Assembly (NCBI GenBank): GCA_017860635.1 | Contig: JAGDMK010000035.1 | Span: 1 to 56,410 of the forward strand | From: Bacteroidota bacterium | Lineage (GTDB): Bacteria > Bacteroidota > Ignavibacteria > UBA10030 > UBA6906 | Direction of reading: 5' to 3' | DNA length: 56,410 nucleotides | Part shown: one piece after another, positions 14,345 through 37,640 of the stretch | Numbering within the stretch: position 1 is the first letter of the stretch | How the letters are laid out: every line of letters starts with the position of its first letter | The notes under the pieces: generated by a model | The model's database searches: none | What the model was told of the DNA's origin: nothing | The model's input: the letters and a program-made list of their open reading frames with translations, nothing else | Made by a program: the position numbers and the translations under genes

Positions 14345-14595
14345 ATTGGCCGGTGAGCGCTGTTAAGCTATGGGTACAAGCTTGACTGTCACCCACGATT
14401 TCCGCATAGTGTGGGGTAACGTTTTCTCCTGTTCTCTCTATTTGAAAGCGCGATGTGATGCTCGGAGACACCCTGGCTCTTCTCCCGATCACTCCCCCCT
14501 TCCCGGGCATCGCATTCCTCCCATTCCGGCCCATTCGGGTCCGTTGTACTAGCCCAGCTCCAAACCGACATCCACTTCCCGAGGGACACATTCCC

Positions 14596-17500: not shown

Positions 17501-17778
17501 TGCGTGTGAGCGCGAAGAGCCTTCCAGGAAGTATCGAAATACGCATCAGAGACAACGGAAACGGAATTCCGCAATCCGTGCGGGACAAGATCTTCAACCC
17601 GTTCTTCACTACGAAGCCCGCCGGCGCGGGGACGGGACTCGGCCTTTCCCTCTCCTATGACATCATCACGCAGGAACACAGGGGCGAGATCAATGTGGAT
17701 ACGAAAGAAGGGGAGTACACGGAGTTCATCATCACCATACCCCGGAACCCCACGAACGAGAAAGGAATTCGGGCATGA
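14596..17778 (+). CDS. Sensor histidine kinase with a large periplasmic two-component-regulator beta-propeller / Y_Y_Y sensor
   Basis: ORF 14455..17778, with the start moved to ATG 14596, which has GAGGGA upstream and a signal/TM segment (LSYVVLFVLCLMATSGLAQ). It contains repeated Reg_prop-type blocks (DGLPQNSAASILQSRDGYIWFATQEGLARFDG and others) and a YYY-like region (FEFHYAGISFTGSNDVRYRYQLSGLDKGW). A TM helix follows, then a coiled coil, the H-box GIAHEIKNPL, and the HATPase N and G boxes (NIVNNACYA; DNGNGIP; GTGLGLSLSYDI). Confidence 0.85.
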   Translation: MRITPPALSRRWLSYVVLFVLCLMATSGLAQRKSIKQYVHQTWTADDGLPQNSAASILQSRDGYIWFATQEGLARFDGVEFRVFDRRNTKELPASWYVRMKEDSAGALWLRPTGFAPGIVRYHDGVFTSFDTSNVLPHNRTITWEIDKHGTMWIGTLGGLFESKNGKYRTYTVKDGLPGDTVFGLGLDSKENLWISTSQGLARLTSGKLERMTGLKEFPDTTFLRLNGPSNCFEDRRGTLWMIKEDREGSLWLATGKGIARFSDGAFERYDHADGLSDNTVQDLLIDREGSIWVGTNGGGVDRFRDEKFVTYSSKVGLNYDMVNTTLEDRTGAIWIGTSFGGINRLKDGVITVFDNKKGPPLIGARALGEDAEGTIWIGTTRGLYTLKNETITMRSRIVNGEPDILPGAFLLTKAGQWLMGSRDTLFSYKNKKFTRIATVGKPGVRGDFIGQLFEDRQGTLWIATENQLYRFKGGTPEAIGLDQGFTGGSVNAMYEDQEGVIWMGASDNGLFRYKDGKFASISPRQGLFDYLAFTVFEDDAGYLWMSCNRGVYRVSKQELNNVADGKAESVTCTAYGTADGMESRECNGGYSPSGCKLRDGRLCFVTTRGLAVVNPADIRINNVPPPVVIDRFLVEGERQPSTESVRVPAGKSRFEFHYAGISFTGSNDVRYRYQLSGLDKGWIDAGSRRDAYYTHLDPGEYTFRVIAANSDGIWNEAGASASFVLEPHFYQTAWFIGLVAFAFLTAGPSFYFYRMRSMKRRRAELEHLVQERTGELQKTLNNLKETQNQLVLSEKMASLGQLTAGIAHEIKNPLNFITNFSVLSHDLTKDLRKELAAERDRVDPQRAAEIESLLSDLEQNVAKINEHGKRADSIVRGMLLHSRGKSGERQETDLNALLAEYTNLAYHGMRAQDQTFNVKIETDFDPTVGKVSVVPQDLSRAFLNIVNNACYAANDKKRSLKNGFVPIVRVSAKSLPGSIEIRIRDNGNGIPQSVRDKIFNPFFTTKPAGAGTGLGLSLSYDIITQEHRGEINVDTKEGEYTEFIITIPRNPTNEKGIRA

Positions 17779-18167
17779 AGATCATGATCGTCGACGATGA
17801 GCGTGATGTAGAGATCCTCTTCCGCCAGCAATTCCGCAAGGAAGTCAAAGACGGACGCGTCGAGCTGTGCTACGCCTTCTCTGGCGAGGAGGCCCTGGAT
17901 TACCTCCAGACCGTCAACCCTCCCGATGTCGTGTGTATTCTTTCGGACATCAACATGCCGGGTATCACCGGACTCGACCTGTTGAAGGCGGTCAAGGAGA
18001 AATACCCGGGCATCAGGGTCTCGATGATCACCGCGTATGGTGACGAGCTCAACTTCAAGACGGCCATGTCAGCGGGCGCGGAGCACTATTTCACCAAGCC
18101 GATAGACTTCGACCAGGTGAAGCGGAACGTTCTGATCCTCGCACCTGCTACTGCCCAGGGATCATGA
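17775..18167 (+). CDS. Stand-alone response-regulator receiver (CheY-like) protein
   Basis: ATGA overlap with the kinase stop. The receiver-domain residues are present: MIVDDE, the phospho-acceptor context ILSDINMPGITGLDLL, and FTKPIDF. Confidence 0.9.
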   Translation: MKIMIVDDERDVEILFRQQFRKEVKDGRVELCYAFSGEEALDYLQTVNPPDVVCILSDINMPGITGLDLLKAVKEKYPGIRVSMITAYGDELNFKTAMSAGAEHYFTKPIDFDQVKRNVLILAPATAQGS

Positions 18168-18170
18168 TCC

Positions 18171-19361
18171 ATGTCAGGGAAGGATATCAGCGTGCCACCG
18201 AGAATTCTCGTTGTTGACGATGAGCCGGATCTCGAACTGCTCATCAAGCAGCGTTTCCGGAAACAGATTCGGGAAAACGAACTCGCGTTCGAGTTTGCAC
18301 AAAATGGCGTCCATGCACTCCAGAAACTGGATGAGCACGGGGACATCTCCGTCATTCTGTCGGATATCAATATGCCCGAAATGGACGGACTGACCCTCCT
18401 GGAGAGGGTGAGTGAACGGAACAATCCGGCCATTAAGTCGGTCATCATATCGGCCTATGGCGACATGGAGAACATCCGGACTGCCATGAACCGCGGGGCC
18501 TTCGACTTTCTGACGAAGCCGATCGACTTTGTCGATCTGGAGCTCACGGTGCAGAAGACCATGCAGCAACTCGAGATCATAAAGCATGCGATGACGGTGA
18601 GGGATGAACTCGTGGCCGTGCAGAGGGACCTGAGCACGGCGACCCGCATCCAGCAGTCATTGCTTCCGAAGACGTTCCCTCCGTTCCCCCATCGCCCCGA
18701 GATCGATCTTTATGCGGAGATGATAACGGCAAAGCAGGTCGGCGGCGACTTCTACGATTACTATTTTATCGATGAAGAGCGTCTCGCCTTCACGGTCGGA
18801 GATGTCTCCGGGAAAGGCATTCCGGCTGCCATCTACATGGCCGTCAGCCGCACGCTCCTGAAGGCGATCGCCCATCAGGTCGTCAATCCGGGTGAGGTCC
18901 TCAGAAAGCTCAACACGCTGTTGATCCCGGAAAGCGAGTCTGCCACGTTCGTGACGGTGTTCTTCGGCGTGCTGAACATCCGTTCGGGAGAGCTGCAATA
19001 CAGCAACGGCGCACACAACGCCCCATTTCTCCTGAGAGCTGGTGGCGGCATCGAAGAGCTTCCGCTGACAGAGGGTTCGATTCTCGGGAAGATTCCTCAT
19101 CTCGATTTCGATACAAGGAGAGTGAAGCTCCAGAAGGGCGACACGCTCTTCCTCTATACAGACGGCGTGAGCGAGGCAATGGATCCGGAAAGCAATCAAT
19201 ATGGCGACGACCGGCTGAAGGGATATCTGGCGTCAACGAACGGGTCCAGCATCGAAGAACTGGTCAAGAACAACCTCGCAGATGTGAAGAAGCACACGCG
19301 TGACGCGCTGCAATCCGACGATATAACAGTTCTTGCGCTGCGCTATCGGGGAGTGCCGTGA
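18171..19361 (+). CDS. Response regulator fused to a PP2C/SpoIIE-type Ser/Thr phosphatase (RsbY/RsbU-like)
   Basis: The N-terminal REC domain shows LVVDDEPD, ILSDINMPEMDGLTLL and LTKPIDF. The C-terminal SpoIIE/PP2C domain shows GGDFYDYYFIDEERLAFTVGDVSGKGIPAAIYMA, LFLYTDGVSEA and DDITVLALRY. It starts 3 nt after the previous stop. Confidence 0.9.
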   Translation: MSGKDISVPPRILVVDDEPDLELLIKQRFRKQIRENELAFEFAQNGVHALQKLDEHGDISVILSDINMPEMDGLTLLERVSERNNPAIKSVIISAYGDMENIRTAMNRGAFDFLTKPIDFVDLELTVQKTMQQLEIIKHAMTVRDELVAVQRDLSTATRIQQSLLPKTFPPFPHRPEIDLYAEMITAKQVGGDFYDYYFIDEERLAFTVGDVSGKGIPAAIYMAVSRTLLKAIAHQVVNPGEVLRKLNTLLIPESESATFVTVFFGVLNIRSGELQYSNGAHNAPFLLRAGGGIEELPLTEGSILGKIPHLDFDTRRVKLQKGDTLFLYTDGVSEAMDPESNQYGDDRLKGYLASTNGSSIEELVKNNLADVKKHTRDALQSDDITVLALRYRGVP

Positions 19362-19927: not shown

Positions 19928-22900
19928 ATGGAACGATTGACAAGGGCGATTGCACTGACGCTGCTGCTTGCGTTGCTTGCCTCTCCGCCTCTCAAGTCGG
20001 GTGAAACCGGGAAGGTTGCCGGGATAATAACCGATAAAGTCACCGGTGAAGCCCTGACGGCTGCCAATATCTCAATCGTCGGCACCTCCATGGGAGGAGC
20101 TGCGAACCTCGAGGGACAATACACCATCCTCCATGTCCCGCCCGGCACCTATAGCCTGCGCGTTTCCCTCATCGGTTACACCACGGTCACCCTCAATGAT
20201 GTGCGAGTGTACATCGACCAGACAGCAAGAGTCGATGTCGCCCTCGCATCCGAATTGATCGAAGGGAGGGAGGTCGTCATCGTTGCAGAAATGCCGACGA
20301 TCAAGAAAGACGTGGCGACGAGCGTCGTTGCCGTGACCGCAAACGAGATTTCCTCTCTTCCTGTGACGAATGTCGTGAGCGCCATCGGCCTGCAGGCGGG
20401 CATTCGCGGCGGATGGGGAGGGCCCGCGGGATATGCGTCTGCGCCGTCCTTCATCTCAAACTACCAGAGAGGAACAGTCAGCGTCAACCAGGGACCCAGC
20501 ATCCGGGGAGGCGGAGGAGACAATGTGCTTTTCATGGTCGATGGCGTCACCATGCGTGATCCGCGCAACAGCGAACCGATGACCAGAGTGCCGTTGAATG
20601 CCGTCCAGGAAATCTCCGTCGAGCGCGGTGGATTCAATGCTGAGTATGGCCAGGTACGCTCCGGTGTCATCAACGTTATTACAAAGGAAGGAGCCAAACG
20701 CGGCTACGCGGGAGGACTTCAGTTGCGCGTACTGCCGCCGCAACCGAAATACTACAAAGTTGACGGTGTTCGAGATGTCACCGACCCCTACTCCTTTGCA
20801 TTGCGCCCGTTCTTTGATCCTGATGTGTGTTGGACAGGCACGGATAACGGGGCGTGGGATACCTACATGAGGGCGCAGTATCCGGAATTCTCCGGGTGGA
20901 ATGCAGTTGCGCGGGTCATGAACACGGACAACGATCCGAACAACGATGTAACCCCGCTTGGTGCGCAACGCATCTTCATGTATGAGACCCGCAAACGGCA
21001 AATCAACAATGAGCCCGACTTCGACATCGATGCCGGCTTCGGCGGGCCGGTCCCGTTCATCGGTGAAGCACTGGGGGATCTGCGTTTCTACGGGTCATAC
21101 CGCAGCACCCGCGAGATGTTGCTCTTCCCTCTTACCAGGCCGGACTACCGTGACTTCGACGCGAATCTGCGGGTGAATGCCGACATCACACCCACCATGA
21201 AACTGCAGGTCTCTGGTGCCTTCGGGAAGCAGTATACCATCAGGCACAACTGGGATGGCACCGGAACATACTTCTTTCCGCGCTACCCGAACGACATTGC
21301 GGGTGTAAGCAGCTACATCGGCAGCTCCACAGATCTCCTGCTCATGTTTTCCGATTTCGCCTTTGCGCTTGCCGATGTCGGCCATCAGTCCGCGGCGGCA
21401 CGATTCACCCACACCATCAGCTCCAATACGTTCTACGAAGTCGCATTGGAACACTTCAGACGCGATTACTGGGTCCGTCCGCCTGCCGTAAGGGACACGT
21501 CACAAAAGTACGAAGTCATTCCGGGTTTCTGGGAGGACTCGAATCCGTTCGGTTATTGGCCGTACGACGTCAATGGAGTCCTGCTCCCGGGAGCTAGCCG
21601 GGAGTTCGTCAGTAGAGCCCGCGACAACAGCGTGATGAACACGACAACGATTAAAGGGGATCTCACCAGCCAGATCAACTTCCATAATCTCCTGAAAGCC
21701 GGTGCCGAGTTCGTGTACAACGATCTCGATTTCGACTACGGCACGATCGGCGGGGCCTCGCAGGACCAGGTCTATTCCGCGCGGGTCCAGAAGAGAGTCT
21801 TCCCGCTGAGGGGGGGGCTCTACCTGCAAGACAAGCTCGAGCTGGAAGAGTTCACGGTCAACGCCGGCTTGCGGCTTGAGTACACCAACTCGAACGTCGA
21901 CTGGTGGGCGGTCAGCGCCTACGACCAGTCATTCTTCTCCTCCAAGTACAACTCGGTCACGGAATACGCCACGGAGGCATCCAAAGCACAGTGGACTCTC
22001 AGTCCCCGCCTCGGCATCTCGCATCCCATAACGGAGGACGCAAAGCTCTTCTTCAACTATGGCCACTTCAAACAACTGCCTCAGTATGAGACGTTATTCC
22101 GGGTGCAGCGGACATCGCAAAACGCGATGACGAGCTTCGGAGACCCGAACCTCATCCTGGCCAAGACCATTTCGTACGAACTGGGATTCGACTACCTCGT
22201 GTTCGATGACATCCTGATTCAAATGGCCGGCTTCTACAATGACATCACCGATCAGCAGGACTTCACGGTATTCTCCGGCACGGTGGGCGGCTTCTCGTAC
22301 ACGAAGTCTACTTCCAACAACTACCAGGACACCCGCGGATTTGAGCTGACAATCCGCAAGAACACCGGAAGGTGGTGGACAGGCTTTGCCAACTACACGT
22401 ACCAGGTAAATACGTCAGGGCACTTCGGGAGTTCGCGGTATTTTGACTCAAAGGGAAGCCAGGCCACATGGGATGCGCAGACGTCGAATCTCTACCAGGA
22501 CCGGCCGATTCCGCAACCCTATGCCCGAGTGAATCTCTATCTGCAGACACCGGAGGATTTTGGGCCGGAGATATTCGGCCATCACATCCTCGGCGGCTGG
22601 GGCTTGAATACGCTGTTTGACTGGCAGGCTGGTTACTGGACCACCTGGAATCCGAGTAGTCTGCCGTACGTCGCATACAACGTCAAGTCGGTGGACTTCT
22701 ACAACCTCTACATGCGATTGGAGAAGATGGTGGATATCGGCAAGTTCAAGGTACAGCTCTTCATGGATATCAACAACGTGTTGAACACGCTCCGCCTGTC
22801 TACCACCAACGATCAGGAGTACATGAAATCGCTGCACCTGCCGACCAGCCCCGACTACAACAACATCCCCGGTGATGACAAGGTAGGCAACTACAGGGAG

Positions 22901-23158
22901 CCTGGTGTGGCCTATCAACCGATGGAGAACGGCGTGGATTTCACACAGGCCGGGCTCAAAGGCGTCATCTACTATCAAGGCTCGAGCGGCAACTACTACG
23001 AGTACGTGAACAGCCAGTGGCAGCAGGTCGAGCAGGGCCGGCTGAACAGGATCCTGGAGGACAAGGCATACGTCGACATGCCGAACGCGGACACATACTG
23101 GTTCCTCGATCCTCGAAGGGTCTACTTTGGCCTGAAGGTCTCATTCAACTTTGACTAA
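19928..23158 (+). CDS. TonB-dependent outer-membrane receptor with an N-terminal carboxypeptidase-regulatory-like domain
   Basis: ORF 19799..23158, with ATG 19928 after GGAGGAG. Its parts, in order:
- signal peptide MERLTRAIALTLLLALLASPPLKSG
- CarboxypepD_reg-like block GKVAGIITDKVTGEALTAANISIVG...GTYSLRVSLIGY
- plug blocks IRGGGGDNVLFMVDGVTMRD and VERGGFNAEYGQVRSGVINVITKEG
- a long beta-barrel-type sequence ending YFGLKVSFNFD. Confidence 0.85.
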   Translation: MERLTRAIALTLLLALLASPPLKSGETGKVAGIITDKVTGEALTAANISIVGTSMGGAANLEGQYTILHVPPGTYSLRVSLIGYTTVTLNDVRVYIDQTARVDVALASELIEGREVVIVAEMPTIKKDVATSVVAVTANEISSLPVTNVVSAIGLQAGIRGGWGGPAGYASAPSFISNYQRGTVSVNQGPSIRGGGGDNVLFMVDGVTMRDPRNSEPMTRVPLNAVQEISVERGGFNAEYGQVRSGVINVITKEGAKRGYAGGLQLRVLPPQPKYYKVDGVRDVTDPYSFALRPFFDPDVCWTGTDNGAWDTYMRAQYPEFSGWNAVARVMNTDNDPNNDVTPLGAQRIFMYETRKRQINNEPDFDIDAGFGGPVPFIGEALGDLRFYGSYRSTREMLLFPLTRPDYRDFDANLRVNADITPTMKLQVSGAFGKQYTIRHNWDGTGTYFFPRYPNDIAGVSSYIGSSTDLLLMFSDFAFALADVGHQSAAARFTHTISSNTFYEVALEHFRRDYWVRPPAVRDTSQKYEVIPGFWEDSNPFGYWPYDVNGVLLPGASREFVSRARDNSVMNTTTIKGDLTSQINFHNLLKAGAEFVYNDLDFDYGTIGGASQDQVYSARVQKRVFPLRGGLYLQDKLELEEFTVNAGLRLEYTNSNVDWWAVSAYDQSFFSSKYNSVTEYATEASKAQWTLSPRLGISHPITEDAKLFFNYGHFKQLPQYETLFRVQRTSQNAMTSFGDPNLILAKTISYELGFDYLVFDDILIQMAGFYNDITDQQDFTVFSGTVGGFSYTKSTSNNYQDTRGFELTIRKNTGRWWTGFANYTYQVNTSGHFGSSRYFDSKGSQATWDAQTSNLYQDRPIPQPYARVNLYLQTPEDFGPEIFGHHILGGWGLNTLFDWQAGYWTTWNPSSLPYVAYNVKSVDFYNLYMRLEKMVDIGKFKVQLFMDINNVLNTLRLSTTNDQEYMKSLHLPTSPDYNNIPGDDKVGNYREPGVAYQPMENGVDFTQAGLKGVIYYQGSSGNYYEYVNSQWQQVEQGRLNRILEDKAYVDMPNADTYWFLDPRRVYFGLKVSFNFD

Positions 23159-23180: not shown

Positions 23181-25316
23181 ATGATACGACGAACAGTCAG
23201 AGTGCGCGGTTGGCTCTCTCTGTGCGCGATAGTATGCTTGACAGCGCTTGTGATTTCCCTGGGCCAGGCTCAAGAGATCCGGTGGCTCCGTGTCGGCGAC
23301 CTGCAGTCGTTTGTGACCGACATCGGTGTTGAGTATGAGGGCCAGCCAACGACGGGGAATTCAAATTTCCTCTCCTGGCCTGCGCTGTATAGTATCGACC
23401 AGAACACCCTCCGCGGGAGACTCCTCTGGATCGGCTGCAAGAATTTCAACGATCCGGTGGAGAAAAAGCTGAAGCCGGTCAAGATGATTGGAGCCGGTCT
23501 GCGTGATTTCGATGACCGTCCAAACCAGATCTTTGTCCAGGAGATCACGCTCGTTGGCCGGAGCACGCATCCGACAGTGACCGTGGACAATGCGAGTGCC
23601 ACGGATCTCGACCAGTACGACGACCTTGATGAGCTGGATCCCTCTCTTCCTTGTGACCGCATGGTGCGAGTACGTTTCAACACCTCGATCGGCATCTCCG
23701 TCACGAAAAAGATCATGGCTTTCGCGAGTTCGCGGCACGGGAATTACTTCATTCACGACTACGTCTTCAAGAACACCGGCATCTACAACAGGGCCGGCGC
23801 AGTTCAATCGCAGACCCTTGACAGCACATGGTTCTACTTCGGGCAGAGGTACGCATTCGCGGGCGTCAGCTCTTCGGGATGGGGTTCATCCTGGGGAGCC
23901 TTCGCTTCCTGTTGGGGACATACCACGCTCTATCATACGTTTGGCGAAGATCCCACCTCTCCGGAATACACACACGCCGGCGCTCCGATGAGAGGATACA
24001 TCTCGTACTATGGCCCAAGTCCCGAGAGCAATCAGTCACTCCTTGCCTACGCGGAGGACTGGGGCTGCCCGGACTTCACCGGCAGGACAGGGATGCTGGG
24101 CTCGGCGAAATATGCGGGCTGCATTACCCTGCACGCCGATGCCGGTCCGGCGAATTCAGCTGACGATCCGTATCAGCCGAGGACGACCTGGTTCATCGGG
24201 AGCGACATCCAGGCAATGCAGAGCAGCGGGTCGAGCCAGTATGATAATCTGCTGATGGCTGACCGATATTCCATAGTTACGGAAGGCCACCCGCCCGGAA
24301 GTTATGACGAGGCTGTCGGCGATGGCAACTATGCGAGCGCCTACGGTGACGCGCGGCGGCAGAACGCCTTGCAGGGCCAGGGTTTCGGTCCGTACAGGCT
24401 TGCTCCCGGCGATAGCATCCACATTGTGTTTGCCGAAGGCGTGTCCGGGATTTCCTGGGAGAAGGGGAAGGAAGTGGGGGGCAACTGGCTCAGTTGGAAA
24501 ACCGCCACTGCTCAACCGACCCTCACCATGCCGAACGGCTCAACCACCACAGACCATAACGTGTACAAACGCCGGTGGGTGGAAACCGGAAGGGATTCTC
24601 TCCTCGCCACGTATCGCAATGCGATGGACAACTTCCGGTCGGGGTACACGGTTCCTCTGCCTCCGCCCCCGCCAAGCTCGTTCACCGTGGAATCCGGCGG
24701 CGACAGGATACGGCTAACGTGGGCAAGCAACGCGACCAGCGACCCGCACTTCGGTGGCTATGTCGTCTTTCGATCGAGGGGCACTGTTCAGGACTACCGG
24801 ACTTCGTACGAGAAGGTATTTGAATGCGGCAAGAGTGGTGTGGTCCACGAATTCAACGATGTCACTGCGATTCGCGGGTTCAACTACTTCTACTACGTCC
24901 AATCGAAGGATGACGGGACGCAAGTTGCCGGGACGATACTGTACAGCAGTCCATTCTGGACAATCACTGCGACGTCGAGCCCGGCTACGTTGCAGCGGCC
25001 TGCGGTGACCTCAACGCTCGATTCCGTCCGCGTGGTCCCGAATCCGTTTGACATCCGCGGCAGGTTTTTGCAGTTCGGCGACCGTTCCCAGTATGACCAG
25101 CTCTCTGTCTACGGCCTGCCACCGGTGGCGACGCTGAAGGTGTTCACCGAGCGGGGCGATCTGATCTGGCAGAAGGAGCACACACGCGGGACCGGAGACG
25201 TGCTCTGGACCTCGCAAACCTCTTCGGGGCAGATCATCTCCAGCGGCGTATACATCCTGGTTGTGTCGACACCGGACAATCGGTCGGTCATTCGAAAATT
25301 CGTTGTGATAAGGTAG
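23181..25316 (+). CDS. Secreted hypothetical protein (711 aa) with an FN3 domain and a T9SS-CTD/FlgD-Ig-like C-terminal beta-sandwich
   Basis: ATG 23181 follows AAAAGGGG. The signal peptide is MIRRTVRVRGWLSLCAIVCLTALVISLGQAQE. The ~480-aa N-terminal region has no motif I recognise. An FN3-like block follows (PPPPPSSFTVESGGDRIRLTWASNATSDPHFGGYVVFRS). The C-terminus is VRVVPNPFDIRG...ATLKVFTERGDLIW...ISSGVYILVVSTPDNRSVIRKFVVIR. Confidence 0.7.
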   Translation: MIRRTVRVRGWLSLCAIVCLTALVISLGQAQEIRWLRVGDLQSFVTDIGVEYEGQPTTGNSNFLSWPALYSIDQNTLRGRLLWIGCKNFNDPVEKKLKPVKMIGAGLRDFDDRPNQIFVQEITLVGRSTHPTVTVDNASATDLDQYDDLDELDPSLPCDRMVRVRFNTSIGISVTKKIMAFASSRHGNYFIHDYVFKNTGIYNRAGAVQSQTLDSTWFYFGQRYAFAGVSSSGWGSSWGAFASCWGHTTLYHTFGEDPTSPEYTHAGAPMRGYISYYGPSPESNQSLLAYAEDWGCPDFTGRTGMLGSAKYAGCITLHADAGPANSADDPYQPRTTWFIGSDIQAMQSSGSSQYDNLLMADRYSIVTEGHPPGSYDEAVGDGNYASAYGDARRQNALQGQGFGPYRLAPGDSIHIVFAEGVSGISWEKGKEVGGNWLSWKTATAQPTLTMPNGSTTTDHNVYKRRWVETGRDSLLATYRNAMDNFRSGYTVPLPPPPPSSFTVESGGDRIRLTWASNATSDPHFGGYVVFRSRGTVQDYRTSYEKVFECGKSGVVHEFNDVTAIRGFNYFYYVQSKDDGTQVAGTILYSSPFWTITATSSPATLQRPAVTSTLDSVRVVPNPFDIRGRFLQFGDRSQYDQLSVYGLPPVATLKVFTERGDLIWQKEHTRGTGDVLWTSQTSSGQIISSGVYILVVSTPDNRSVIRKFVVIR

Positions 25317-25327
25317 GGAGCGCAGCG

Positions 25328-26380
25328 ATGAACTACCGTCAGAGTTTGCGTACGATAACCCTCGGCGTGCTGCTGGTCTGCATGGTGGCCGCTCCGGCAT
25401 CCGGGCAGGAGAATCAGAAACTGGCGCAGAGCGGTTTTCAGTTCCTCGGCGTGGTGTCGGATGCCCGCGCGGCAGCGTTAGGGGAAGCCATGACCAGTCT
25501 CCGGTCCGGCTCGAGCGCGCTGTTCTTCAATCCGGCCGGGATGGCCGGGATGAACGGTGATTTTGATTTCACTGCGAGCACAAACAAGTGGATAGCGGAT
25601 ATCACGCATACTACGTTCAGTGCGGCGGTGAATCCATGGCACGGCGACTATGGGATCCTCGGTTTCAGCATCCAGCACATCGACTACGGTGAGTTCCTGG
25701 GCACACGCGTCAACAGTGCAAGTCCGAAGGGTTACGATGATACCGGCACATTCTCCTTGAGCGCACTTGCCCTGGGACTCGGGTACGCGAAGCAGCTTTC
25801 GGAGCGATTCAGCGTTGGAGCGCATGTACGCTGGGTGCGGCAGGATCTCGGAGAAAGCATGACAGCGGTGAACATCCAGACATACTTCCCGGGGACAGAT
25901 TCGAGCTACCGGGTTGCGGACACGGTCTTCGTCAGCAACAAACTGTCGCCACTCGTGTTTGACTTCGGAACGCAATTCAAGACCGGTTTCAAAAGCCTGG
26001 TCTTTGGCATGTCGGTGCGCAATTTCTCCGGAGAGGTCGAATACGCGTCCGAAGGCTTTCAGGCACCGCTGGTGTTCACGTTGGGAATTTCCATAGATGT
26101 GATGGACTTCATCGAAGGTCTTTCGCCGGACCATTCATTGTACTGCAGCATCGATGCGAGTCATCATCGGGATCATCCAGAGCAGCTGAAAATCGGATTG
26201 GAGTACACGCTGATGGATCTGCTCAGTCTGCGGGCCGGGTATGCTTCGAGCAACAACGATGAGACGAACTTCTCTTATGGTATTGGAGTCTCCAAGTACG
26301 GTATCGCCTTTGACTATGCCTACACGCCATACGGAGTATTTGACGCGGTTCAGAGAATGACCGTGCGGTTTTCCTACTGA
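25328..26380 (+). CDS. PorV/PorQ-family-like outer-membrane beta-barrel protein
   Basis: It starts 11 nt after the previous stop, with a GGGAG RBS. The signal peptide is LLVCMVAAPASGQ. The N-terminal block AQSGFQFLGVVSDARAAALGEAMTSL..SSALFFNPAGMA resembles the PorV/PorQ (FadL-like) family signature. It has alternating beta-strand character and ends with an aromatic residue (..MTVRFSY). Confidence 0.65.
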   Translation: MNYRQSLRTITLGVLLVCMVAAPASGQENQKLAQSGFQFLGVVSDARAAALGEAMTSLRSGSSALFFNPAGMAGMNGDFDFTASTNKWIADITHTTFSAAVNPWHGDYGILGFSIQHIDYGEFLGTRVNSASPKGYDDTGTFSLSALALGLGYAKQLSERFSVGAHVRWVRQDLGESMTAVNIQTYFPGTDSSYRVADTVFVSNKLSPLVFDFGTQFKTGFKSLVFGMSVRNFSGEVEYASEGFQAPLVFTLGISIDVMDFIEGLSPDHSLYCSIDASHHRDHPEQLKIGLEYTLMDLLSLRAGYASSNNDETNFSYGIGVSKYGIAFDYAYTPYGVFDAVQRMTVRFSY

Positions 26381-26398: not shown

Positions 26399-27646
26399 AT
26401 GAAGAATCCAAGGCGCCTGGTGACAGCCGCGGCCATGAGTGTGACGGGCTTCCTTGTGCTTGCGGCGGGTTGCTCGTATGATGTAGCAGCCCCGCTATGG
26501 GAGCAACCGTATTCGGCCCCGCCAACGCCCAGCATTACCAGCATTCAACCGGCATCTGCCCCCGCCGGGGTGAACACCATCCTTATTGCCGGGCAGAATC
26601 TAAGCGGCGTGCCCATGAGCAACGGCGTGTACTTCGATATCACCCCTGCAGACATTGTCCAGAAGTCGGCTACGGCCATCACCGTGCGCAGGCCTTCCTT
26701 GGCGACGAGTTCATGCACGGTGAACCTGGTGTCTGACAGCGCACTTGTCGTTGCCAAGATCTCATTCGGCAACATCGACCTTGTGATGGATCGCGTGGGT
26801 AATTTCCTGGACAACGTCGCACTCGCTGCTGTCGTGGTGGACAGTGCGGAGAATCTCTTTGTTATTTCGGGAGTGACGCCGGTATCGATCTGGAAAGTAT
26901 CGACGGGCGGCGACAAATCAGCGCTCATGACCAGCGGGATCACCGTGAGACCGCCGTTCGATGCAGCGCTGAGGAGCGGGGTGCTCTATCTGACGAGCAG
27001 CAACAGGGAAATACAGCAGGTCAACATTGCGACAGGGGTCGTCTCACGATGGACGCAACTCCCGGCAGGAAGGGTTGTGAAGGTGGGCGACTTCGACGCA
27101 AACGGATACTTCTATACAGGCGGCGCTGCTGGCGGCGATCTCTGCGTCATCCCTCCCAATCCGCCGACAACGCTCACGCTCGCTCAAATAACGCTGTCAG
27201 GATTCTATGCCGCCGACGAGATTCTCGCCGTCCGGGTCTTCAAAGGGTATCTCTATGTGGCCTCCAAAGCCACCGGGCAGACTGCGGGAAAGATCTGGCG
27301 GCACGCGCTTGGGAATGCCGGACAGCTGGGAACGCAAGAGCTGGTCCTTGATCTCAGCGCGCATGCCACCTTTGCCGCCCGGCAGGTCAAGGCGATCTCT
27401 CTTTCCGCATCGGGAGTACTCTATGTAACGACGGACGCGGAAAACCCGCTGCTCGTTTTCGATCCCGCCAACGGCAGCCTGGACTATTTCTACAAGGGCA
27501 TTGTTCCTCCCTATGGCAAGCACGCCGGCTGGGGGCGCAGCGTCTATCTGTATATGATCAGCGGGGACATTGCAAACACCAACACCGCTCTGCGATGGAA
27601 CGTCGCACGGGTGAATATGGGCACCCCCGGTGCCTCGAGCCAATGA
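26399..27646 (+). CDS. Lipoprotein with an IPT/TIG domain followed by a probable beta-propeller
   Basis: It starts 18 nt after the previous stop, with a GGAAGGAAG RBS. The lipobox is FLVLAAGC. The IPT/TIG-like block is PSITSIQPASAPAGVNTILIAGQNLSGV...ATAITVRRP. The remaining ~300 aa carry repeated strand motifs (..LYVTS.., ..GYFYTGG.., ..LYVASK.., ..LYVTTD..). Confidence 0.7.
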   Translation: MKNPRRLVTAAAMSVTGFLVLAAGCSYDVAAPLWEQPYSAPPTPSITSIQPASAPAGVNTILIAGQNLSGVPMSNGVYFDITPADIVQKSATAITVRRPSLATSSCTVNLVSDSALVVAKISFGNIDLVMDRVGNFLDNVALAAVVVDSAENLFVISGVTPVSIWKVSTGGDKSALMTSGITVRPPFDAALRSGVLYLTSSNREIQQVNIATGVVSRWTQLPAGRVVKVGDFDANGYFYTGGAAGGDLCVIPPNPPTTLTLAQITLSGFYAADEILAVRVFKGYLYVASKATGQTAGKIWRHALGNAGQLGTQELVLDLSAHATFAARQVKAISLSASGVLYVTTDAENPLLVFDPANGSLDYFYKGIVPPYGKHAGWGRSVYLYMISGDIANTNTALRWNVARVNMGTPGASSQ

Positions 27647-27711: not shown

Positions 27712-27749
27712 AAAAAGGGTCGGAACGGGATTTCTGACCGTCCTTTTTT
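27712..27749 (+). terminator. Probable rho-independent terminator after the four-gene outer-membrane module
   Basis: AAAAA, then GGAACGG, a 9-nt loop and CCGTCC (a 6-bp stem with one bulge), followed directly by TTTTTT at 27744-27749. Confidence 0.5.
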
Positions 27750-27811
27750 CATACCGTTCAGCGGGATGCAGCGTCCGTGCCTGTCACGTTGTGAACGAAG
27801 GGGTCAGCGCA

Positions 27812-30652
27812 ATGGAGAAGAATCCCTGGTCCGCCATCCTTCTGGCGGCATGTCTGATCGCGCCACATGTCTCCCCGGCGCAGGAGAAACACGCAGATGG
27901 CATGCTGTTCGAACTCGTAGGGCAGAAGGAGACCGATCCCCGGTATATGAAAATCCAGATTTGCACGGAGAAGATTGTCCGTGTGATCGCCGCAAAGGAG
28001 AAGGACTTCTCTCTCCGCCCGAGTCTGATGGTTCAAAAGGCCTCATGGGACCCTGTCCCCTGGTCGGTGCGCGAGAAGACTGATCTGGTGGAAATCTCCA
28101 CGTCCAAACTGATGGTCCGGGTTCATCGGCGCACCGGGGCGGTGTCGTTCTTCGATGCGGCCGGCCGGCTGCTCCTGAAGGAGAAGGACGGCGGGGGAAA
28201 AGTGCTTACTGCAACAGAGGTCCTGGGGGAAAAGACGTGGCACATCCAGCAGCTCTTTGACTCCCCGGCCGATGAGGCATTCTATGGCCTGGGTGCGCAT
28301 CAGAGCTCACTGATGAACTACAAGGGATACGATGTGGATTTGCAGCAGCACAATATTGTCGACGTCATTCCCTTTCTCGTTTCGAACAAGCAGTACGGAA
28401 TCCTGTGGGACAACTACTCCCGTACGAAGTTCGGAGACACCCGGGACTACCAGCCGTTGTCGACCCTGAAGCTTTTCAATGCGCAGGGCAAACAGGGCGG
28501 GCTAACCGCCGAGTATTTCCGCAATGCGCAGTTCGGCTCGCTGCTGACGTCACAGACGGAAGCGACCATTGCGCACGAATATGTCGATTCCATGGGCACA
28601 TTTCCGGACGGGTTCAACCTCACTACAGGGAGCATTCGCTGGAGCGGTACCATTGGGTCCCATGAGGCGGGGACGCACAAGTTGCGGGTCTATTCCTCTT
28701 CGTACTTGAAACTCTGGCTGGATGGCAAGTTGATGGTCGACTCATGGCGGCAGAACTGGCTGCCGTGGATACACGAGCTGCGCCTGCCCATGAAACCCGG
28801 GAAACGATATCCGATCAGAATCGAATGGATACCCAACGGCGGAAATGTAGGGCTGACATGCCTCGGCCCTGAGGACCCCGTGTATCACAAGAGTCTTTCA
28901 CTCTGGTCCAATGTCGCCGATCAGATCGATTACTACTTTATCCATGGAAAGAATCCCGATGAGTTGATCCGGGGATACCGTACGGTGACGGGCCGAGTCC
29001 CTCTGATGCCCAAATGGGCGATGGGCTACTGGCAGAGCCGCGAGCGATACCGCTCACAGGATGAACTCCTTTCCGTCGTGCGGGAATTCCGTCGGCGGCA
29101 GTTCCCCCTCGACAATATTGTGCAGGATTGGTTTTACTGGAAAGAAGACCAGTGGGGGAGCCATGAGTTCGACTCCACGCGATTCCCCGATCCGGCCGGC
29201 ATGGTGAAGCAACTCCATGATACCCTTCACGCCCGCATCATGATCACAGCCTGGCCCAAATTCTATGTGGGGACGAAGCACTATGAGGAGTTCAGGGAAA
29301 AGGGATGGCTCTACATGCACAACATCGAGAAGGGTGTGCGCGACTGGGTGGGACCGGGATACGTGTCGACTTTTTTTGATCCTTTCAGCAGTGAGGCAAG
29401 AGATCTTTACTGGGCGCAGATCAACGATAAGCTCTTTCGCTTAGGAATCGATGCCTGGTGGCTTGATTCCACAGAGCCGGACCTTCAATCCAACGTGTCG
29501 CCTACCGAAACGCTCCTGCGCATGCACCCGAATGCACTGGGTACGGCGGCCCGATACGAAAACGCATATTCCCTGATGATGACCAGGGGTGTGTATGAGA
29601 ACCAGCGCAAAACCTCGCCCGACCAGCGCGTCTGTATCCTCACCCGATCGGCATACGCCGGGCAGCAGCGCTATGCGTCCGCGACCTGGAGCGGAGACGT
29701 GGCCACACGCTGGTACGACCTGGGAGCACAAATCAAAGCCGGGCTGAACTTCTCGCTCTCGGGCATCCCATACTGGACAACCGATATCGGCGGATTCGCG
29801 GTCGAGCCGCGCTACGAGCATCCAAACGATGCTGACCTGGATGAATGGCGGGAGCTCAACACGCGGTGGTTCCAGTTTGGGACGTTCTGTCCGCTGTTTC
29901 GCTCGCACGGGCAGTTTCCACTTCGCGAACCATTCAATCTGGCTCCCGACGGTCATCCTGCGTATCAGACCCTGCTTGCCTATACCAGACTCCGCTACCG
30001 CCTGATGCCCTACATCTATTCCCTCGCCGGAATGGTCACGCAAAGCGATTATACCATCCTGCGGGCCCTTGTCATGGACTTCGGTAACGACAAACGCGTC
30101 GCGAACATCGGCGACCAATTCCTGTTCGGTCCGGCGCTGCTGATCAATCCGGTAACGTCCTACAAGACAAGAGCACGTCAGGTCTATCTTCCCGCTGGCG
30201 CCGGGTGGTACGGACTGAGATCCGGTGTGCACTACAGAGGAGGCCAGACGATCCGGGCGGATGCGCCTTACACGGATATCCCGATATTTGTGAAGGAAGG
30301 GTCCATTGTGCCGTGCGGTCCCGAGATCGAGTATACGGATCAAAGGCCTGCCGATCCCATCAGGCTGTTCGTCTACACTGGCGCCGATGGGTCGTTCACA
30401 CTGTATGAAGATGAAGCGCTTAACTACAACTACGAAAAGGGCGCGTACGTGAGCATTCCGATGACGTACAGCGAGAAAGACACGCGTCTGACAATCGGAG
30501 AACGCAAAGGTGAGTTTCCTGGAATGCTCAGGAATCGCACGTTCGAAATCGTGTGGATCGGCAAAGGGAAGCCCGCCGGTATGGATTTTTCCGGAAAGCC
30601 AGACGCGGTGGTGAGCTACGATGGAACTCCACAATCGATCGGCATGAGGTGA
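27812..30652 (+). CDS. Glycoside hydrolase family 31 with an inserted PA14 domain (alpha-xylosidase-like)
   Basis: ORF 27791..30652, with ATG 27812. The signal peptide is MEKNPWSAILLAACLIAPHVSPAQE. A PA14-like block is present (LTAEYFRNAQFGSLL....IRWSGTIGSHEAGTHKLRVYSSSYLKLWLDGKLMVDSW). The GH31 nucleophile block is GIDAWWLDSTEPD, and ATWSGDV is the second catalytic-region block. Confidence 0.9.
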   Translation: MEKNPWSAILLAACLIAPHVSPAQEKHADGMLFELVGQKETDPRYMKIQICTEKIVRVIAAKEKDFSLRPSLMVQKASWDPVPWSVREKTDLVEISTSKLMVRVHRRTGAVSFFDAAGRLLLKEKDGGGKVLTATEVLGEKTWHIQQLFDSPADEAFYGLGAHQSSLMNYKGYDVDLQQHNIVDVIPFLVSNKQYGILWDNYSRTKFGDTRDYQPLSTLKLFNAQGKQGGLTAEYFRNAQFGSLLTSQTEATIAHEYVDSMGTFPDGFNLTTGSIRWSGTIGSHEAGTHKLRVYSSSYLKLWLDGKLMVDSWRQNWLPWIHELRLPMKPGKRYPIRIEWIPNGGNVGLTCLGPEDPVYHKSLSLWSNVADQIDYYFIHGKNPDELIRGYRTVTGRVPLMPKWAMGYWQSRERYRSQDELLSVVREFRRRQFPLDNIVQDWFYWKEDQWGSHEFDSTRFPDPAGMVKQLHDTLHARIMITAWPKFYVGTKHYEEFREKGWLYMHNIEKGVRDWVGPGYVSTFFDPFSSEARDLYWAQINDKLFRLGIDAWWLDSTEPDLQSNVSPTETLLRMHPNALGTAARYENAYSLMMTRGVYENQRKTSPDQRVCILTRSAYAGQQRYASATWSGDVATRWYDLGAQIKAGLNFSLSGIPYWTTDIGGFAVEPRYEHPNDADLDEWRELNTRWFQFGTFCPLFRSHGQFPLREPFNLAPDGHPAYQTLLAYTRLRYRLMPYIYSLAGMVTQSDYTILRALVMDFGNDKRVANIGDQFLFGPALLINPVTSYKTRARQVYLPAGAGWYGLRSGVHYRGGQTIRADAPYTDIPIFVKEGSIVPCGPEIEYTDQRPADPIRLFVYTGADGSFTLYEDEALNYNYEKGAYVSIPMTYSEKDTRLTIGERKGEFPGMLRNRTFEIVWIGKGKPAGMDFSGKPDAVVSYDGTPQSIGMR

Positions 30653-30654
30653 CA

Positions 30655-33096
30655 ATGACACGAACATGGATGAGTATGATCGCAATCGGTCTGTTTGCAC
30701 TTCCGGCATTCTGGATGACAGCATGCTCGGGCTCCTCTCCACGAGTCAGAAAGACTGAAGACTTTTGTGCGGGCTGGAAGTTTCATCTTGGCGACGTGAC
30801 GAACGGCTATGAGACTGCTCTGGATGATTCCCCGTGGCGGTTGATAGATCTCCCTCACGATTGGAGCATCGAGGGAGAGTTCAGCAATGACCACCCCGCT
30901 ACTCCCGGAGGGGGTGCGTTGCCTGGAGGCATCGGGTGGTACAGGAAGACGTTCACCGTACCGTCGGCCAACAAGGAAGGGCTGGTGTTCGTGGAGTTTG
31001 ATGGCATCTACAGGAACAGCGAGGTGTGGATCAACGGTCACGCTCTGGGCAAACGTCCCAATGGGTATATCTCCTTCCGATACGAGCTGACACCGTTCCT
31101 GAAGTATGGGAACGAGATGAATCTCATTGCGGTCAGAGTCGACAACGCGCAGCAGCCCAATTCCCGGTGGTATTCGGGCTCCGGGATCTACAGGAATGTC
31201 CGGCTAGTGACGACAGGGAAGCTCTTTGTGGACCAGTGGGGGACGTGCATCACAACTCCTGAGGTGACGGGGAAATCGGCGACAGTCTCAATCAGGACCA
31301 GGGTCCGCAATCGCATGCCTCACGATCAATCCTTCACCGTGCACACAGAAGTGATCGATGAGCAGGGAAAGAGCGTAGCCAGTACGGAAGCGCAAGGCAC
31401 TACGCTCAAGGATTCTGTCGGTGAGGTTGCCCAGACCCTCACAATTCAGAATCCTCCCTTGTGGTCGGTCGAACACACGCACATGCTCAAAGCGATAACA
31501 ACCATCGTGGTAGATGGACGGGTCAGTGATGACTATGAGACGCCGTTTGGCATCCGCACGTTCAGGTTTGCCAGTGACAGCGGTTTCTTCCTGAACGGGA
31601 AGCCGCTGAAGATCAAGGGCGTGTGCAACCACCACGACCTCGGTTGCTTGGGCGCGGCCGTCAATCGCAGGGCCCTGGAGCGTCAGCTTGAGATCATGAA
31701 GGCGATGGGGGTCAACGCTATCCGCACATCCCACAATCCGCCGGCACCAGAGCTTTTGGACCTGTGCGATGTGATGGGTTTTCTTGTGATGGACGAGGCA
31801 TTTGATATGTGGAAGAAAAAGAAAACAGACTACGACTACGCCCTGGATTGGGATGCATGGCACGTACGGGACCTGCAGGATATGATTCTCCGTGACCGGA
31901 ACCACCCCAGTGTGTTCCTCTGGAGCATCGGCAATGAGGTGCTGGAGCAATTTCAAAAGGAAGACAGCAGCGGGACGGTTATCGCGAAGGAGCTTGCAGC
32001 GATCGTCAGGGACATCGATCCGACCCGCCCCATCACCGCAGCCTGCAACGACCAGGATCCCTTGAATCCTGTCATCAGATCCGGGGCGCTCGATCTGATC
32101 GGCTACAACTACTCGCACACGACATTCGCAGCATTTCCGCAGATCTATCCCGGGAAGAGATTCCTGGCCACCGAGACTACTTCGGGGCTTGCGACACGCG
32201 GCTCCTACGATATGCCGTCCGACAGCATCCGTCGGTGGCCGCTGCGATGGGATAAGCCTTTTCTCGAGGGCAACCCCGACAATTCGTGTTCGTCCTACGA
32301 CAATTGCAGCACCCCCTGGGGATCCACACACGAAGAGACGTGGAAGATCGTGAAGAAACATGCATTCCTCTCGGGCATGTTCATCTGGACGGGCTTCGAC
32401 TATCTGGGTGAACCCACCCCGTATTCCTGGCCTTCACGAAGCTCGTATTTCGGCATTGTGGATCTGGCGGGTATGCCGAAGGATGTCTATTATTTGTATC
32501 AGGGCGAGTGGACGGACACGCCGGTGCTTCATCTGTTCCCGCATTGGAACTGGAGCGACGGAGAGCTCGTGGATGTGTGGGCATACACAAATTGCGACGA
32601 AGTGGAGTTGTTCCTGAATGGTCAGTCTCAAGGAACAAAAACCAAGACGGGAGACGACCTCCACATTGCATGGCGGCTTGCCTTCACGCCGGGTGCGTTG
32701 AAAGCTGTTGGCCGCAAGGCCGGAAAAGAAGACCTCATTCGCGAGGTGAGGACGGCCGGGATCCCTTCCACAATCGTGCTGACGCCGGACAGGAAGGTGA
32801 TCACGGCGGATGGCAAGGATCTGTCGTTTGTCACTGTCAGCCTCCTCGACGACGCTGGTACGCTCGTGCCGCACGCTGATAACCTCGTCACCTTTGAGGT
32901 GGAGGGTGAGGGCCGCCTGGTGGGTGTCGACAATGGCCTCCAGACAAGCCATGAACCATTCAAAGCATCATACCGGAAGGCGTTCAATGGACTCTGTCTT
33001 GCGGTTATCCAGTCAAGCAAGACTGCCGGACAGATTACGGTGACGGCGAGTTCTGCAGGTCTGAAGGGAGCAACAACTGTCATCACTGCGCGATAG
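30655..33096 (+). CDS. Glycoside hydrolase family 2 (beta-galactosidase-like), probable lipoprotein
   Basis: ORF 30553..33096, with ATG 30655, 2 nt after the GH31 stop and with GAGG upstream. The lipobox is FWMTAC. GH2 blocks are present: WYRKTF, NGYISFRYELT, NHPSVFLWSIGNEV (acid/base) and MFIWTGFDYLGEP (nucleophile). Confidence 0.9.
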   Translation: MTRTWMSMIAIGLFALPAFWMTACSGSSPRVRKTEDFCAGWKFHLGDVTNGYETALDDSPWRLIDLPHDWSIEGEFSNDHPATPGGGALPGGIGWYRKTFTVPSANKEGLVFVEFDGIYRNSEVWINGHALGKRPNGYISFRYELTPFLKYGNEMNLIAVRVDNAQQPNSRWYSGSGIYRNVRLVTTGKLFVDQWGTCITTPEVTGKSATVSIRTRVRNRMPHDQSFTVHTEVIDEQGKSVASTEAQGTTLKDSVGEVAQTLTIQNPPLWSVEHTHMLKAITTIVVDGRVSDDYETPFGIRTFRFASDSGFFLNGKPLKIKGVCNHHDLGCLGAAVNRRALERQLEIMKAMGVNAIRTSHNPPAPELLDLCDVMGFLVMDEAFDMWKKKKTDYDYALDWDAWHVRDLQDMILRDRNHPSVFLWSIGNEVLEQFQKEDSSGTVIAKELAAIVRDIDPTRPITAACNDQDPLNPVIRSGALDLIGYNYSHTTFAAFPQIYPGKRFLATETTSGLATRGSYDMPSDSIRRWPLRWDKPFLEGNPDNSCSSYDNCSTPWGSTHEETWKIVKKHAFLSGMFIWTGFDYLGEPTPYSWPSRSSYFGIVDLAGMPKDVYYLYQGEWTDTPVLHLFPHWNWSDGELVDVWAYTNCDEVELFLNGQSQGTKTKTGDDLHIAWRLAFTPGALKAVGRKAGKEDLIREVRTAGIPSTIVLTPDRKVITADGKDLSFVTVSLLDDAGTLVPHADNLVTFEVEGEGRLVGVDNGLQTSHEPFKASYRKAFNGLCLAVIQSSKTAGQITVTASSAGLKGATTVITAR

Positions 33097-37199: not shown

Positions 37200-37640
37200 A
37201 GAATTGCTCCTTTGTGAATGGTGAGACTGCTGTGAATGTGAGCTGCAAAAGCGAACAGTCAATATTCCGTTTTACCGCTAACTGTATCGCTAACTATCGA
37301 GGATGAACGAAAGAAATTCGTTGACTTGGGAATCAATTGCTCGAGAGTTTTCCCAGGGATCCTGCTGACCGAAAATGAGGTGTGGGGATCGAATTCATGT
37401 GAATCTTGGATAAATCTATTAGAAAGTCAAGTCTTTTTTCTGGAATTGGCCACATTTAGCCACATTCGGTGATCGCCGCCCGGTCTGCACCAGTTGCGTC
37501 GTACGAGGGTCGATGTGAAGGGCGGGCGGAGCGGCAGGTGAGCCGTGAGGGCTACACTCCGTTGAACCGCCGCTTAAACCTCTTGTCTCGAGGTGCTGTC
37601 TAATTACGAAGCTTCCTAACAAATCACCAAGGAGGTACAG

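Follow-up and report, generated by a model that had tools for sequence, protein, structure and literature searches.

A predicted type IX secretion cargo with its own PorV-family barrel beside a TonB-dependent receptor: a probable sugar-catching surface protein in an Ignavibacteria genome

Introduction

Outer-membrane glycan capture is understood almost solely through the SusC/SusD pair of the Bacteroidota. Polymer-degrading sister phyla from soils, sediments, hot springs and digesters carry many SusC-like receptors, mostly without SusD. The locus described here is located in contig JAGDMK010000035.1 of assembly GCA_017860635.1, from a Bacteroidota bacterium placed in the Ignavibacteria; the stretch from position 1 to 56,410, read on the forward strand and numbered in nucleotides (nt), is referred to below as the window. 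It encodes a 711-amino-acid (aa) protein, here called X, directly between a TonB-dependent receptor and an outer-membrane barrel of the PorV/PorQ family. X is probably a sugar-catching surface partner of the receptor, held by an unusually conserved secretion tail. Together, X, barrel and receptor would constitute an apparently undescribed alternative to the Bacteroides SusC/SusD pair; full-text literature searches returned no description of a receptor/tail protein/PorV-like cassette or of the X family.

The arrangement resembles SusC/SusD (RagA/RagB) in several respects. The X gene directly follows that of a TonB receptor with a CarboxypepD_reg N-terminal domain, it belongs to an operon of glycoside hydrolase genes that is preceded by a sensor kinase gene, and its product, predicted to be surface-exposed, has a carbohydrate-associated fold. 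A further surface lipoprotein, with a TIG domain, is encoded downstream, comparable to the SusE/F-type binders. However, X is not a lipoprotein and lacks the tetratricopeptide-repeat helical fold of SusD, its receptor fails the SusC/RagA model, and its anchoring is proposed to occur via a secretion tail and a PorV-family barrel rather than via lipid.

Lids other than SusD are known from TonB transporters of Bacteroides, including BtuG, XusB, HmuY, DUF4249 and DUF4625 (Price et al., bioRxiv 10.1101/2023.03.17.533168). Like X, these are outer-facing accessory proteins encoded beside non-SusC TonB transporters and conserved with the transporter across families. Unlike X, all are lipoproteins and involve no type IX secretion system (T9SS) or PorV-like barrel, neither of which that study mentions (bioRxiv 10.1101/2023.03.17.533168).

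In type IX secretion, PorV serves as carrier of cargo proteins whose C-terminal domain (CTD) is a type A tail. Type B tails use alternative PorP/SprF carriers, which are usually encoded beside the cargo and then act as surface anchors, while the tails of PorU and PorZ are retained and the two proteins remain attached to PorV and PorQ, respectively. According to a proposal in one review, a CTD handled by a cognate PorV-like barrel is shielded from cleavage, and in the published model such barrels also anchor the cargo (PMC10994853, PMC10202324). X shares with the PorU-PorV, PorZ-PorQ and SprB-SprF pairs a gene adjoining that of its own PorV-like barrel and a CTD that departs from the bulk type A form; PorZ supplies the best CTD match, and porU and porV have the same gene order in this genome. 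By contrast, the barrel is not a PorV, PorQ or PorV2 equivalog, the CTD fails the curated models, about 15 such pairs occur in one genome, and the pair is tied to a TonB receptor and glycan degradation rather than to secretion housekeeping or gliding.

The X gene and its family

The X reading frame (23181–25316, + strand) is open without stops. An upstream TTG (23151) would place the start inside the receptor gene; the ATG at 23181 has AAGGGG in front of it and agrees with the start in 51 orthologues. The initial annotation had described a secreted 711-aa protein consisting of a signal peptide, an unassigned N-terminal region, a Pro-rich hinge, an FN3 domain and a CTD. This layout is borne out, and every motif it quoted (WGSSWGAFASCWGHTTLYHTFGEDP, QPRTTWFIGSDIQAMQSSGSSQYDNLLMADRY, PLPPPPPSS, VRVVPNPF, ATLKVF, ISSGVYILVV and KFVVIR) is present in the translation.

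That the gene is real follows from its many homologues: more than 669 at 50–74% identity, and 396 clusters (50% identity) at E<=1e-30 in a profile search of 1.84 billion representatives. All are annotated as hypothetical, and they come from KSB1, Ignavibacteria, Melioribacteraceae and metagenome-assembled genomes (MAGs) labelled 'Bacteroidota'. In some Ignavibacteriota MAGs (loci L072, L085, L087 and L088) the homologue of X either falls into two frames that overlap or extends to about 1,350 aa, and the ~1,350-aa homologue at L088 has neither receptor nor barrel neighbours. These may be frameshifts or fusion variants.

Against Pfam, X gives CHU_C alone, below threshold (residues 648–702, 15.6 bits versus a cut-off of 27), and PF18962 is not matched at E<=1. 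In NCBIfam, the secretion tail model Por_Secre_tail (TIGR04183) also falls short, at 20.5 versus 23 bits. An AlphaFold2 (AF2) model built with 51 sequences has a mean predicted local distance difference test (pLDDT) score of 86.9 and a predicted template modelling score (pTM) of 0.82, and divides X into a signal helix (residues 8–30), an N-terminal domain (32–490), an FN3-like sandwich (500–605) and a seven-stranded CTD (617–709). Searched at full length with Foldseek, the model returns matches dominated by the FN3 and CTD tandem, with PorZ (5m11) also matched. The signal peptide varies widely among orthologues (28% pairwise identity) and its translation contains no lipobox, which rules out lipoprotein anchoring of X.

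A variant C-terminal domain

X ends in a seven-stranded sandwich of about 80–100 aa at the extreme C-terminus; the strands in the AF2 model occupy residues 617–621, 640–644, 650–656, 661–667, 673–677, 689–696 and 702–709 of a protein that stops at 711. The only sequence match of this domain with a solved structure is the CTD of PorZ (5m11, E 1.4e-3), the C-terminal 90 residues of PorZ are the best NCBIfam match on X (NF052228, E 2.8e-7), and Foldseek agrees. Type B assignment (TIGR04131/PF13585 CHU_C with PorP/SprF) is ruled out by the subthreshold CHU_C score and by a neighbour that belongs to the PorV/PorQ family.

The tail is homologous to ordinary T9SS tails, since a profile made from the tails of the X family finds about 125 other extreme C-terminal domains in this genome. 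Proteins encoded immediately before a PorV-like gene crowd the top of that search, at ranks 1, 2, 4–11, 13, 14 and 23 of 127. Fourteen CTDs from cassettes resembling the X locus, X included, share in alignment VVPNPY, an insert of 12–28 aa, a conserved His and a terminal KF-x-V-I-K/R, with a strand motif F-x-N/H-L-P-x-x-C-x-I-x-I, whereas ordinary tails have NYPNPFNPxTTI in place of VVPNPY. The canonical form is present in the other four cargo proteins of the window, encoded at 33215–35161 (+), 35370–37262 (−), 40524–42236 (−) and 6587–12610 (−), and the alignment thus upholds the earlier observation that X departs from them.

A maximum-likelihood tree was computed for all 125 terminal CTDs in the genome from those alignment columns alone that they share; a single branch (Shimodaira–Hasegawa-like approximate likelihood ratio test 99) separates exactly the 14 cassette CTDs from all other tails. 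When labels are shuffled on the tree, 13.5 changes are needed on average, and none of 500 shuffles is as low as the observed arrangement. The alignment proposed in the initial annotation therefore places the X tail in a separate clade that holds solely CTDs from cassettes with a PorV-like gene. PorU, located on contig C300 ahead of the canonical PorV, has an ordinary tail. On these comparisons the X tail belongs to a distinct CTD lineage tied to PorV paralogues.

The tail is also the most conserved part of the protein. Mean pairwise identity among 51 X family members is 72% for the CTD, 66% for the FN3 domain and 58% for the N-terminal domain. The family of the arabinofuranosidase-like cargo of the window served as a control, with homologues from the same lineages and at the same divergence as the X family (49–76% identity); there the body is 60% and the CTD 50% identical. 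The median ratio of CTD to body identity is 1.31 for X versus 0.85 for the control. Judged by these identities, the X CTD appears to be under stronger constraint than a transit signal, and a most-constrained tail would not be expected of a signal that is merely cut off.

Conservation of the four-gene cassette

X is the second of four genes on one strand, separated by gaps of 22, 11 and 18 nt and provided with ribosome-binding sites. The receptor frame opens with a TTG at 19799, but its likely start is an ATG (at the position in Table 1) that opens a signal peptide (MERLTRAIALTLLL...). Because only its N-terminus matches the SusC/RagA model TIGR04056 (65 bits versus a cut-off of 368), the receptor is not a member of the SusC subfamily. 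The barrel passes the PorV/PorQ family model NF033709 with 175.7 bits versus a cut-off of 90; it is below the equivalog cut-offs for PorV (72.9 versus 250), PorQ (81.8 versus 220) and PorV2 (47.7 versus 325), and the PorP/SprF family is not matched in Pfam or NCBIfam. The last gene encodes a TIG/IPT lipoprotein.

A scan restricted to one genome per species identified 80 loci, from Ignavibacteriota, KSB1, Calditrichota (Calditrichia), Neomarinimicrobiota (Marinimicrobia) and MAGs labelled Bacteroidetes; a cultured carrier among them is Rosettibacter primus 4148-Me. Neighbours were counted on loci with enough flanking sequence. The linkage is strict: a TonB receptor directly precedes X in 67 of 70 loci, a PorV-like gene directly follows it in 61 of 64, and the TIG lipoprotein comes after the barrel in 54 of 58. 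The same four genes are present on the contigs of two orthologues, from KSB1 and Melioribacteraceae. Co-occurrence with the PorV-like neighbour, which the initial annotation had put forward as a check, thus extends across several phyla. Tandem complete cassettes, in which X, barrel and TIG genes are followed by receptor, X, barrel and TIG genes, occur in Candidatus Zhuqueibacter pondensis (KSB1; L001/L015) and at L044 and L029.

The cassette is also multiplied within this genome (3.9 Mb, 395 contigs, 88% complete), which has 19 PorV-like open reading frames (ORFs). Thirteen of its CTD proteins are immediately followed by a PorV-like gene, and nearly all are located behind a TonB receptor. A fourteenth cassette (C183:4871–12626) has the permuted order TIG lipoprotein, PorV-like barrel, receptor and X paralogue, so the four genes travel together even when rearranged. 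A variant cassette (C352:16–7452) lacks a CTD protein between receptor and barrel: the receptor gene directly adjoins that of the PorV-like barrel, and genes for a lipoprotein of 366 aa and a further protein of 928 aa come next.

The cassette proteins that take the place of X range from 590 to 1182 aa, and the seven that were scanned with Pfam give a weak FlgD_ig match at most. A hidden Markov model (HMM) of the X N-terminal domain matches four of them (on C81, C183, C384 and C292), which are the demonstrable paralogues of that domain, and weakly matches two more (C371 and C97). Aligned by hhalign with the proteins of C166 and C322, the X N-terminal domain shares a short GP[YF]-x-[LI]-x-x-GD strand motif alone, at probabilities of 48% and 1%. 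That all these cassette proteins have a common origin is accordingly unproven, given that the HMM reaches few of them and hhalign finds only the short motif.

Across 13 cassettes, the divergence of the CTD, that of the barrel and that of the receptor are correlated (Mantel rho 0.54–0.67, p 2e-4), from which it follows that the cassettes duplicate as units. Because whole-cassette duplication explains the correlation, the mirror-tree result carries no weight as an argument that the three proteins touch.

The N-terminal domain, hinge and FN3 domain

The N-terminal domain has no match in Pfam, NCBIfam or the PDB sequences, whether searched as a single sequence or as a 51-sequence profile, or by phmmer on the PDB. 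Modelled alone, it has a pLDDT of 83 and a pTM of 0.87, and in the AF2 model it is mostly beta with a long helix at its end. The structure search suggested in the initial annotation gives, as top PDB matches in Foldseek, the beta-supersandwich N-terminal domains of glycoside hydrolase (GH) family 94 cellodextrin, cellobiose and laminaribiose phosphorylases. The best of these is 5nz7 (E 8.5e-7, template modelling (TM) score 0.35), and identity across the matches is 8–12%. Further matches are dextran dextrinase, the glycoside-phosphorylase domain of cyclic glucan synthase, and GH116, GH65 and GH161 enzymes, followed by a weaker match to the YidC P1 domain. The matches to supersandwich domains of carbohydrate-active enzymes (GH94, GH116, GH65 and dextran dextrinase) accord with the glycan-related role that had been predicted, and Foldseek assigned the region to no enzyme family unrelated to glycans.

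Although the N-terminal domains of the GH94, GH116 and GH65 enzymes and of dextran dextrinase are the best fold matches, X differs from these enzymes in lacking an (alpha/alpha)6 domain, in a partial alignment and in the absence of any relation at the sequence level. Neither Foldseek nor the model reveals a counterpart of the catalytic (alpha/alpha)6 domain; residue 490 is followed by the hinge, FN3 domain and CTD. X as an enzyme of GH94, GH65 or GH116 type is ruled out, as the N-terminal fold alone is matched and the (alpha/alpha)6 barrel is missing. Since the match is partial and is to accessory domains of carbohydrate-active enzymes, the modelled fold would appear to be carbohydrate-associated; by itself it neither proves binding nor excludes catalysis. 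It is proposed, on the strength of the model, that this domain is the glycan-binding part of X.

Positions of the domain that are invariant in 51 orthologues include D91, D150, R160, R223, W238, W245, R271, Q332, D342 and Y354, and H318, D320 and E419 are nearly so. Some relatives carry additional CBM5/12 modules, and longer ones have beta-helix/pectinesterase-like regions or BNR/sortilin propellers; the T9SS tail is always terminal.

Between the N-terminal domain and the tail are a hexaproline hinge, in which P495–P498 are invariant or nearly so among 51 orthologues, and a module that is FN3-like by structure. The Pfam fn3 profile finds no match on X, but residues 500–605 form the seven-stranded beta-sandwich of an FN3 domain in the model, and Foldseek matches this part to many tandem FN3 structures (E ~1e-5).

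Type IX secretion and SusD in carrier genomes

The genome encodes a complete T9SS, with SprA (811 bits), PorU (598 bits) and a canonical PorV (255 bits) all above their cut-offs. PorU is split over C300:1–3117 and C19:13–1473, with the single canonical PorV directly after it, the same order of CTD protein and then barrel as in the uptake cassettes. The roughly 125 ORFs with a T9SS-type terminal CTD are a very large cargo set for a genome of this size. SprA is also present in all 10 other X-carrying genomes searched; the initial annotation had allowed that the domain might prove to be a plain FlgD-Ig/Big domain of organisms without a T9SS, and this is not the pattern found.

SusD (PF07980) has no match in the genome that carries the window. 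Of the 11 genomes tested, 7 lack it and the remainder carry between one and three copies. X itself is ruled out as a SusD/RagB protein by the missing lipobox, an almost entirely beta model, the lack of a Pfam match and the absence of PF07980 from the genome.

Proposed mode of action and alternatives

The reading that we favour, with a little better than even confidence, is that X is a glycan binder exported by the T9SS and held on the surface, beside the transporter, by docking of its CTD on a private PorV-family carrier. What we infer, rather than observe, is that X leaves the cell by the T9SS, keeps its CTD on the barrel, binds glycans and forms a complex with the receptor. X would cross the inner membrane by Sec via its signal peptide and the outer membrane through the type IX translocon SprA. 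It would then bypass the general carrier PorV, its variant CTD being taken up instead by the barrel encoded just downstream. The CTD would remain uncleaved and docked on that barrel, in the manner of PorU on PorV, PorZ on PorQ and type B cargo on PorP/SprF, and docking would fix X in the outer membrane next to the receptor. With the FN3 domain and proline hinge serving as a stalk, the N-terminal supersandwich could bind an oligosaccharide or polysaccharide and hand it over to the receptor, and the TIG lipoprotein may be a further surface component of the module. That X is received by, and stays on, its own barrel is suggested because a private barrel adjoins it, its tail lineage is divergent, PorZ is the best match to the tail, and the CTD is its most conserved part.

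The ligand would probably be a glycan decorated by alpha-xylosyl or alpha-glucosyl, by galactosyl and by arabinosyl groups, because genes for a GH31 enzyme (with PA14), a GH2 enzyme and an arabinofuranosidase-like enzyme follow the module. A plant-type glycan with side groups of this kind, for instance xyloglucan oligosaccharides, is conceivable.

The initial annotation had proposed X as the glycan-binding or capturing component of the module, with a CTD variant specialised for the adjacent PorV paralogue rather than for general T9SS sorting. The overall proposal is supported, with binding and docking kept as inferences. Specialisation for the paralogue agrees with the CTD clade and the gene linkage; independence from T9SS sorting does not stand, as the SprA translocon would still be required.

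Several points weigh against the favoured reading. The contacts of the CTD with the barrel and of X with the receptor are deduced rather than observed, and the co-divergence of the three components, being expected from whole-cassette duplication, is no proof of contact. In 3 of 64 loci a member of the X family is present without a PorV-like or receptor neighbour. The ligand is guessed from neighbouring genes alone, and a GH31 homologue flanks just 15 of 55 related loci, mostly directly after the module and mostly at those of the closest orthologues. The fold match of the N-terminal domain covers only part of its 460 aa (TM 0.33–0.37), and the matched supersandwich domains are accessory in their enzymes and not proven binders. 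Neither the type A nor the type B models give the CTD a score that reaches their curated cut-offs.

Some of these points bear on what the N-terminal domain does. X may instead act as an enzyme, a secreted hydrolase or lyase with a large beta-sandwich as its scaffold and from a carbohydrate-active family that has so far escaped recognition. It would cleave the polymer on the cell surface and the receptor would import the products, while the barrel would still act as carrier or anchor. The invariant Asp, Glu, His and Arg residues would equally suit an unrecognised catalytic site, and there are many invariant charged and aromatic positions; the domain is far larger than the portion that matches a supersandwich; some relatives are fused to beta-helix/pectinesterase-like regions; and the window, as scanned with Pfam and NCBIfam, has side-chain-removing enzymes but no obvious backbone-cleaving one. 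However, no catalytic domain is matched by sequence or fold in Pfam, the PDB or Foldseek, the top fold matches are non-catalytic domains of enzymes that need the (alpha/alpha)6 domain absent from X, and the slot directly after the receptor gene is that of a SusD-type binder in known loci. We consider an enzymatic role unlikely.

The fate of the tail allows two further alternatives. The barrel could be a dedicated shuttle that takes X from SprA to PorU, where the CTD would be cut and X released or linked to surface lipopolysaccharide like type A cargo. High conservation of the CTD fits this as well as it fits docking, as does the strict linkage, and both the presence of PorU and the homology of the tail to type A CTDs, shown by the ~125 other terminal CTDs found by the profile, are in its favour. 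Against it, about 15 private shuttles seem redundant beside a general PorV if the end state is the same, cargo is kept in every known case of a cognate PorV-like barrel (PorU-PorV, PorZ-PorQ, and PorP/SprF with type B cargo; PMC10202324), and the nearest CTD with a solved structure, that of PorZ, is a retained one; a shuttle followed by cleavage thus seems improbable, to about the same degree as an enzymatic role. Far less probable still, to the point of being very hard to credit, is that the domain is a generic FlgD-Ig/Big-like domain unrelated to the T9SS and the barrel a FadL-type channel working with the receptor independently of X. The subthreshold scores of all T9SS CTD models, the weak FlgD_ig matches in other cassette proteins and the C352 cassette with its missing CTD protein could be read that way. 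Yet the domain is always at the extreme C-terminus with the seven-stranded CTD fold, it falls inside the tree of T9SS CTDs of the genome, its best matches are the CTDs of PorZ and PorU, SprA is present in every X-carrying genome tested, and the barrel passes the PorV/PorQ family model.

Surroundings of the module

Features of the X locus are listed in Table 1. The stretch at 14455–19361, upstream of the module, encodes first a sensor kinase with a Reg_prop/YYY propeller, next a single-domain receiver and then a protein that joins a receiver to PP2C (SpoIIE); the uptake locus has no response regulator of the DNA-binding kind beside it. Downstream, the GH2 ORF shares 100 nt (30553–30652) with the end of the GH31 gene when its first GTG is taken as the start, and its true start is probably further downstream.

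Table 1. Positions of the module genes, the domains of X and neighbouring features in the window
Feature	Position	Strand	Description
TonB-dependent receptor	19928..23158	+	CarboxypepD_reg N-domain, Plug, OMP_b-brl_3 barrel; Pfam, NCBIfam
Signal peptide of X	23181..23273	+	Residues 1-31, ...SLGQA/QE; translation and AF2 helix 8-30
N-terminal domain of X	23274..24650	+	Residues 32-490; Trp-rich beta-supersandwich with helical additions, without Pfam family
Hexaproline hinge	24657..24674	+	Residues 493-498; sequence
FN3-like beta-sandwich	24675..24995	+	Residues 499-605; AF2 strands, Foldseek
Variant T9SS CTD and stop codon	25029..25316	+	Residues 617-711, 7 strands; VVPNPF, insert, F-x-N-L-P motif (here YGLPP), KFVVIR
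PorV/PorQ-family outer-membrane barrel	25328..26380	+	350 aa; starts 11 nt past X stop; GGAG before ATG
TIG/IPT and DUF6923 beta-propeller-like lipoprotein	26399..27646	+	Lipobox LAAGC; fourth conserved module gene
Terminator-like hairpin and T-run	27718..27749	+	After four-gene module; consensus match alone, regional count not above shuffles
GH31 with PA14	27791-30652	+	Pfam/NCBIfam
GH2 GalB-type beta-galactosidase	ORF 30553 to 33096	+	Pfam/NCBIfam
Arabinofuranosidase-like enzyme	33215-35161	+	Canonical type A CTD; Pfam/NCBIfam

Implications

X is probably a T9SS cargo that has been recruited, along with a carrier of its own, to partner a transporter. Going further, and with confidence that falls somewhat short of even, the variant tail could represent a third class of T9SS CTD with its own family of PorV-like carriers and anchors, used for building nutrient-uptake machines. 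In Ignavibacteriota, KSB1, Calditrichota, Marinimicrobia and related phyla, receptor, X, barrel and TIG lipoprotein might then form a stable outer-membrane complex that corresponds to the SusCD 'utilisome' of the Bacteroidota. It would be assembled by type IX secretion rather than by lipoprotein export, with the variable N-terminal domains of the X proteins setting the substrate specificity of each of some 15 cassettes per genome.

The X family, which comprises hundreds of 50%-identity clusters and has no Pfam model, offers together with its private barrel a concrete and testable answer to how receptors without SusD are fed with substrate, and its N-terminal domain is a candidate for a new carbohydrate-binding or catalytic family. 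Direct testing is feasible, as cultured carriers such as Rosettibacter primus 4148-Me exist. If the favoured reading is true, the role of T9SS carrier barrels extends from secretion and gliding to nutrient uptake.

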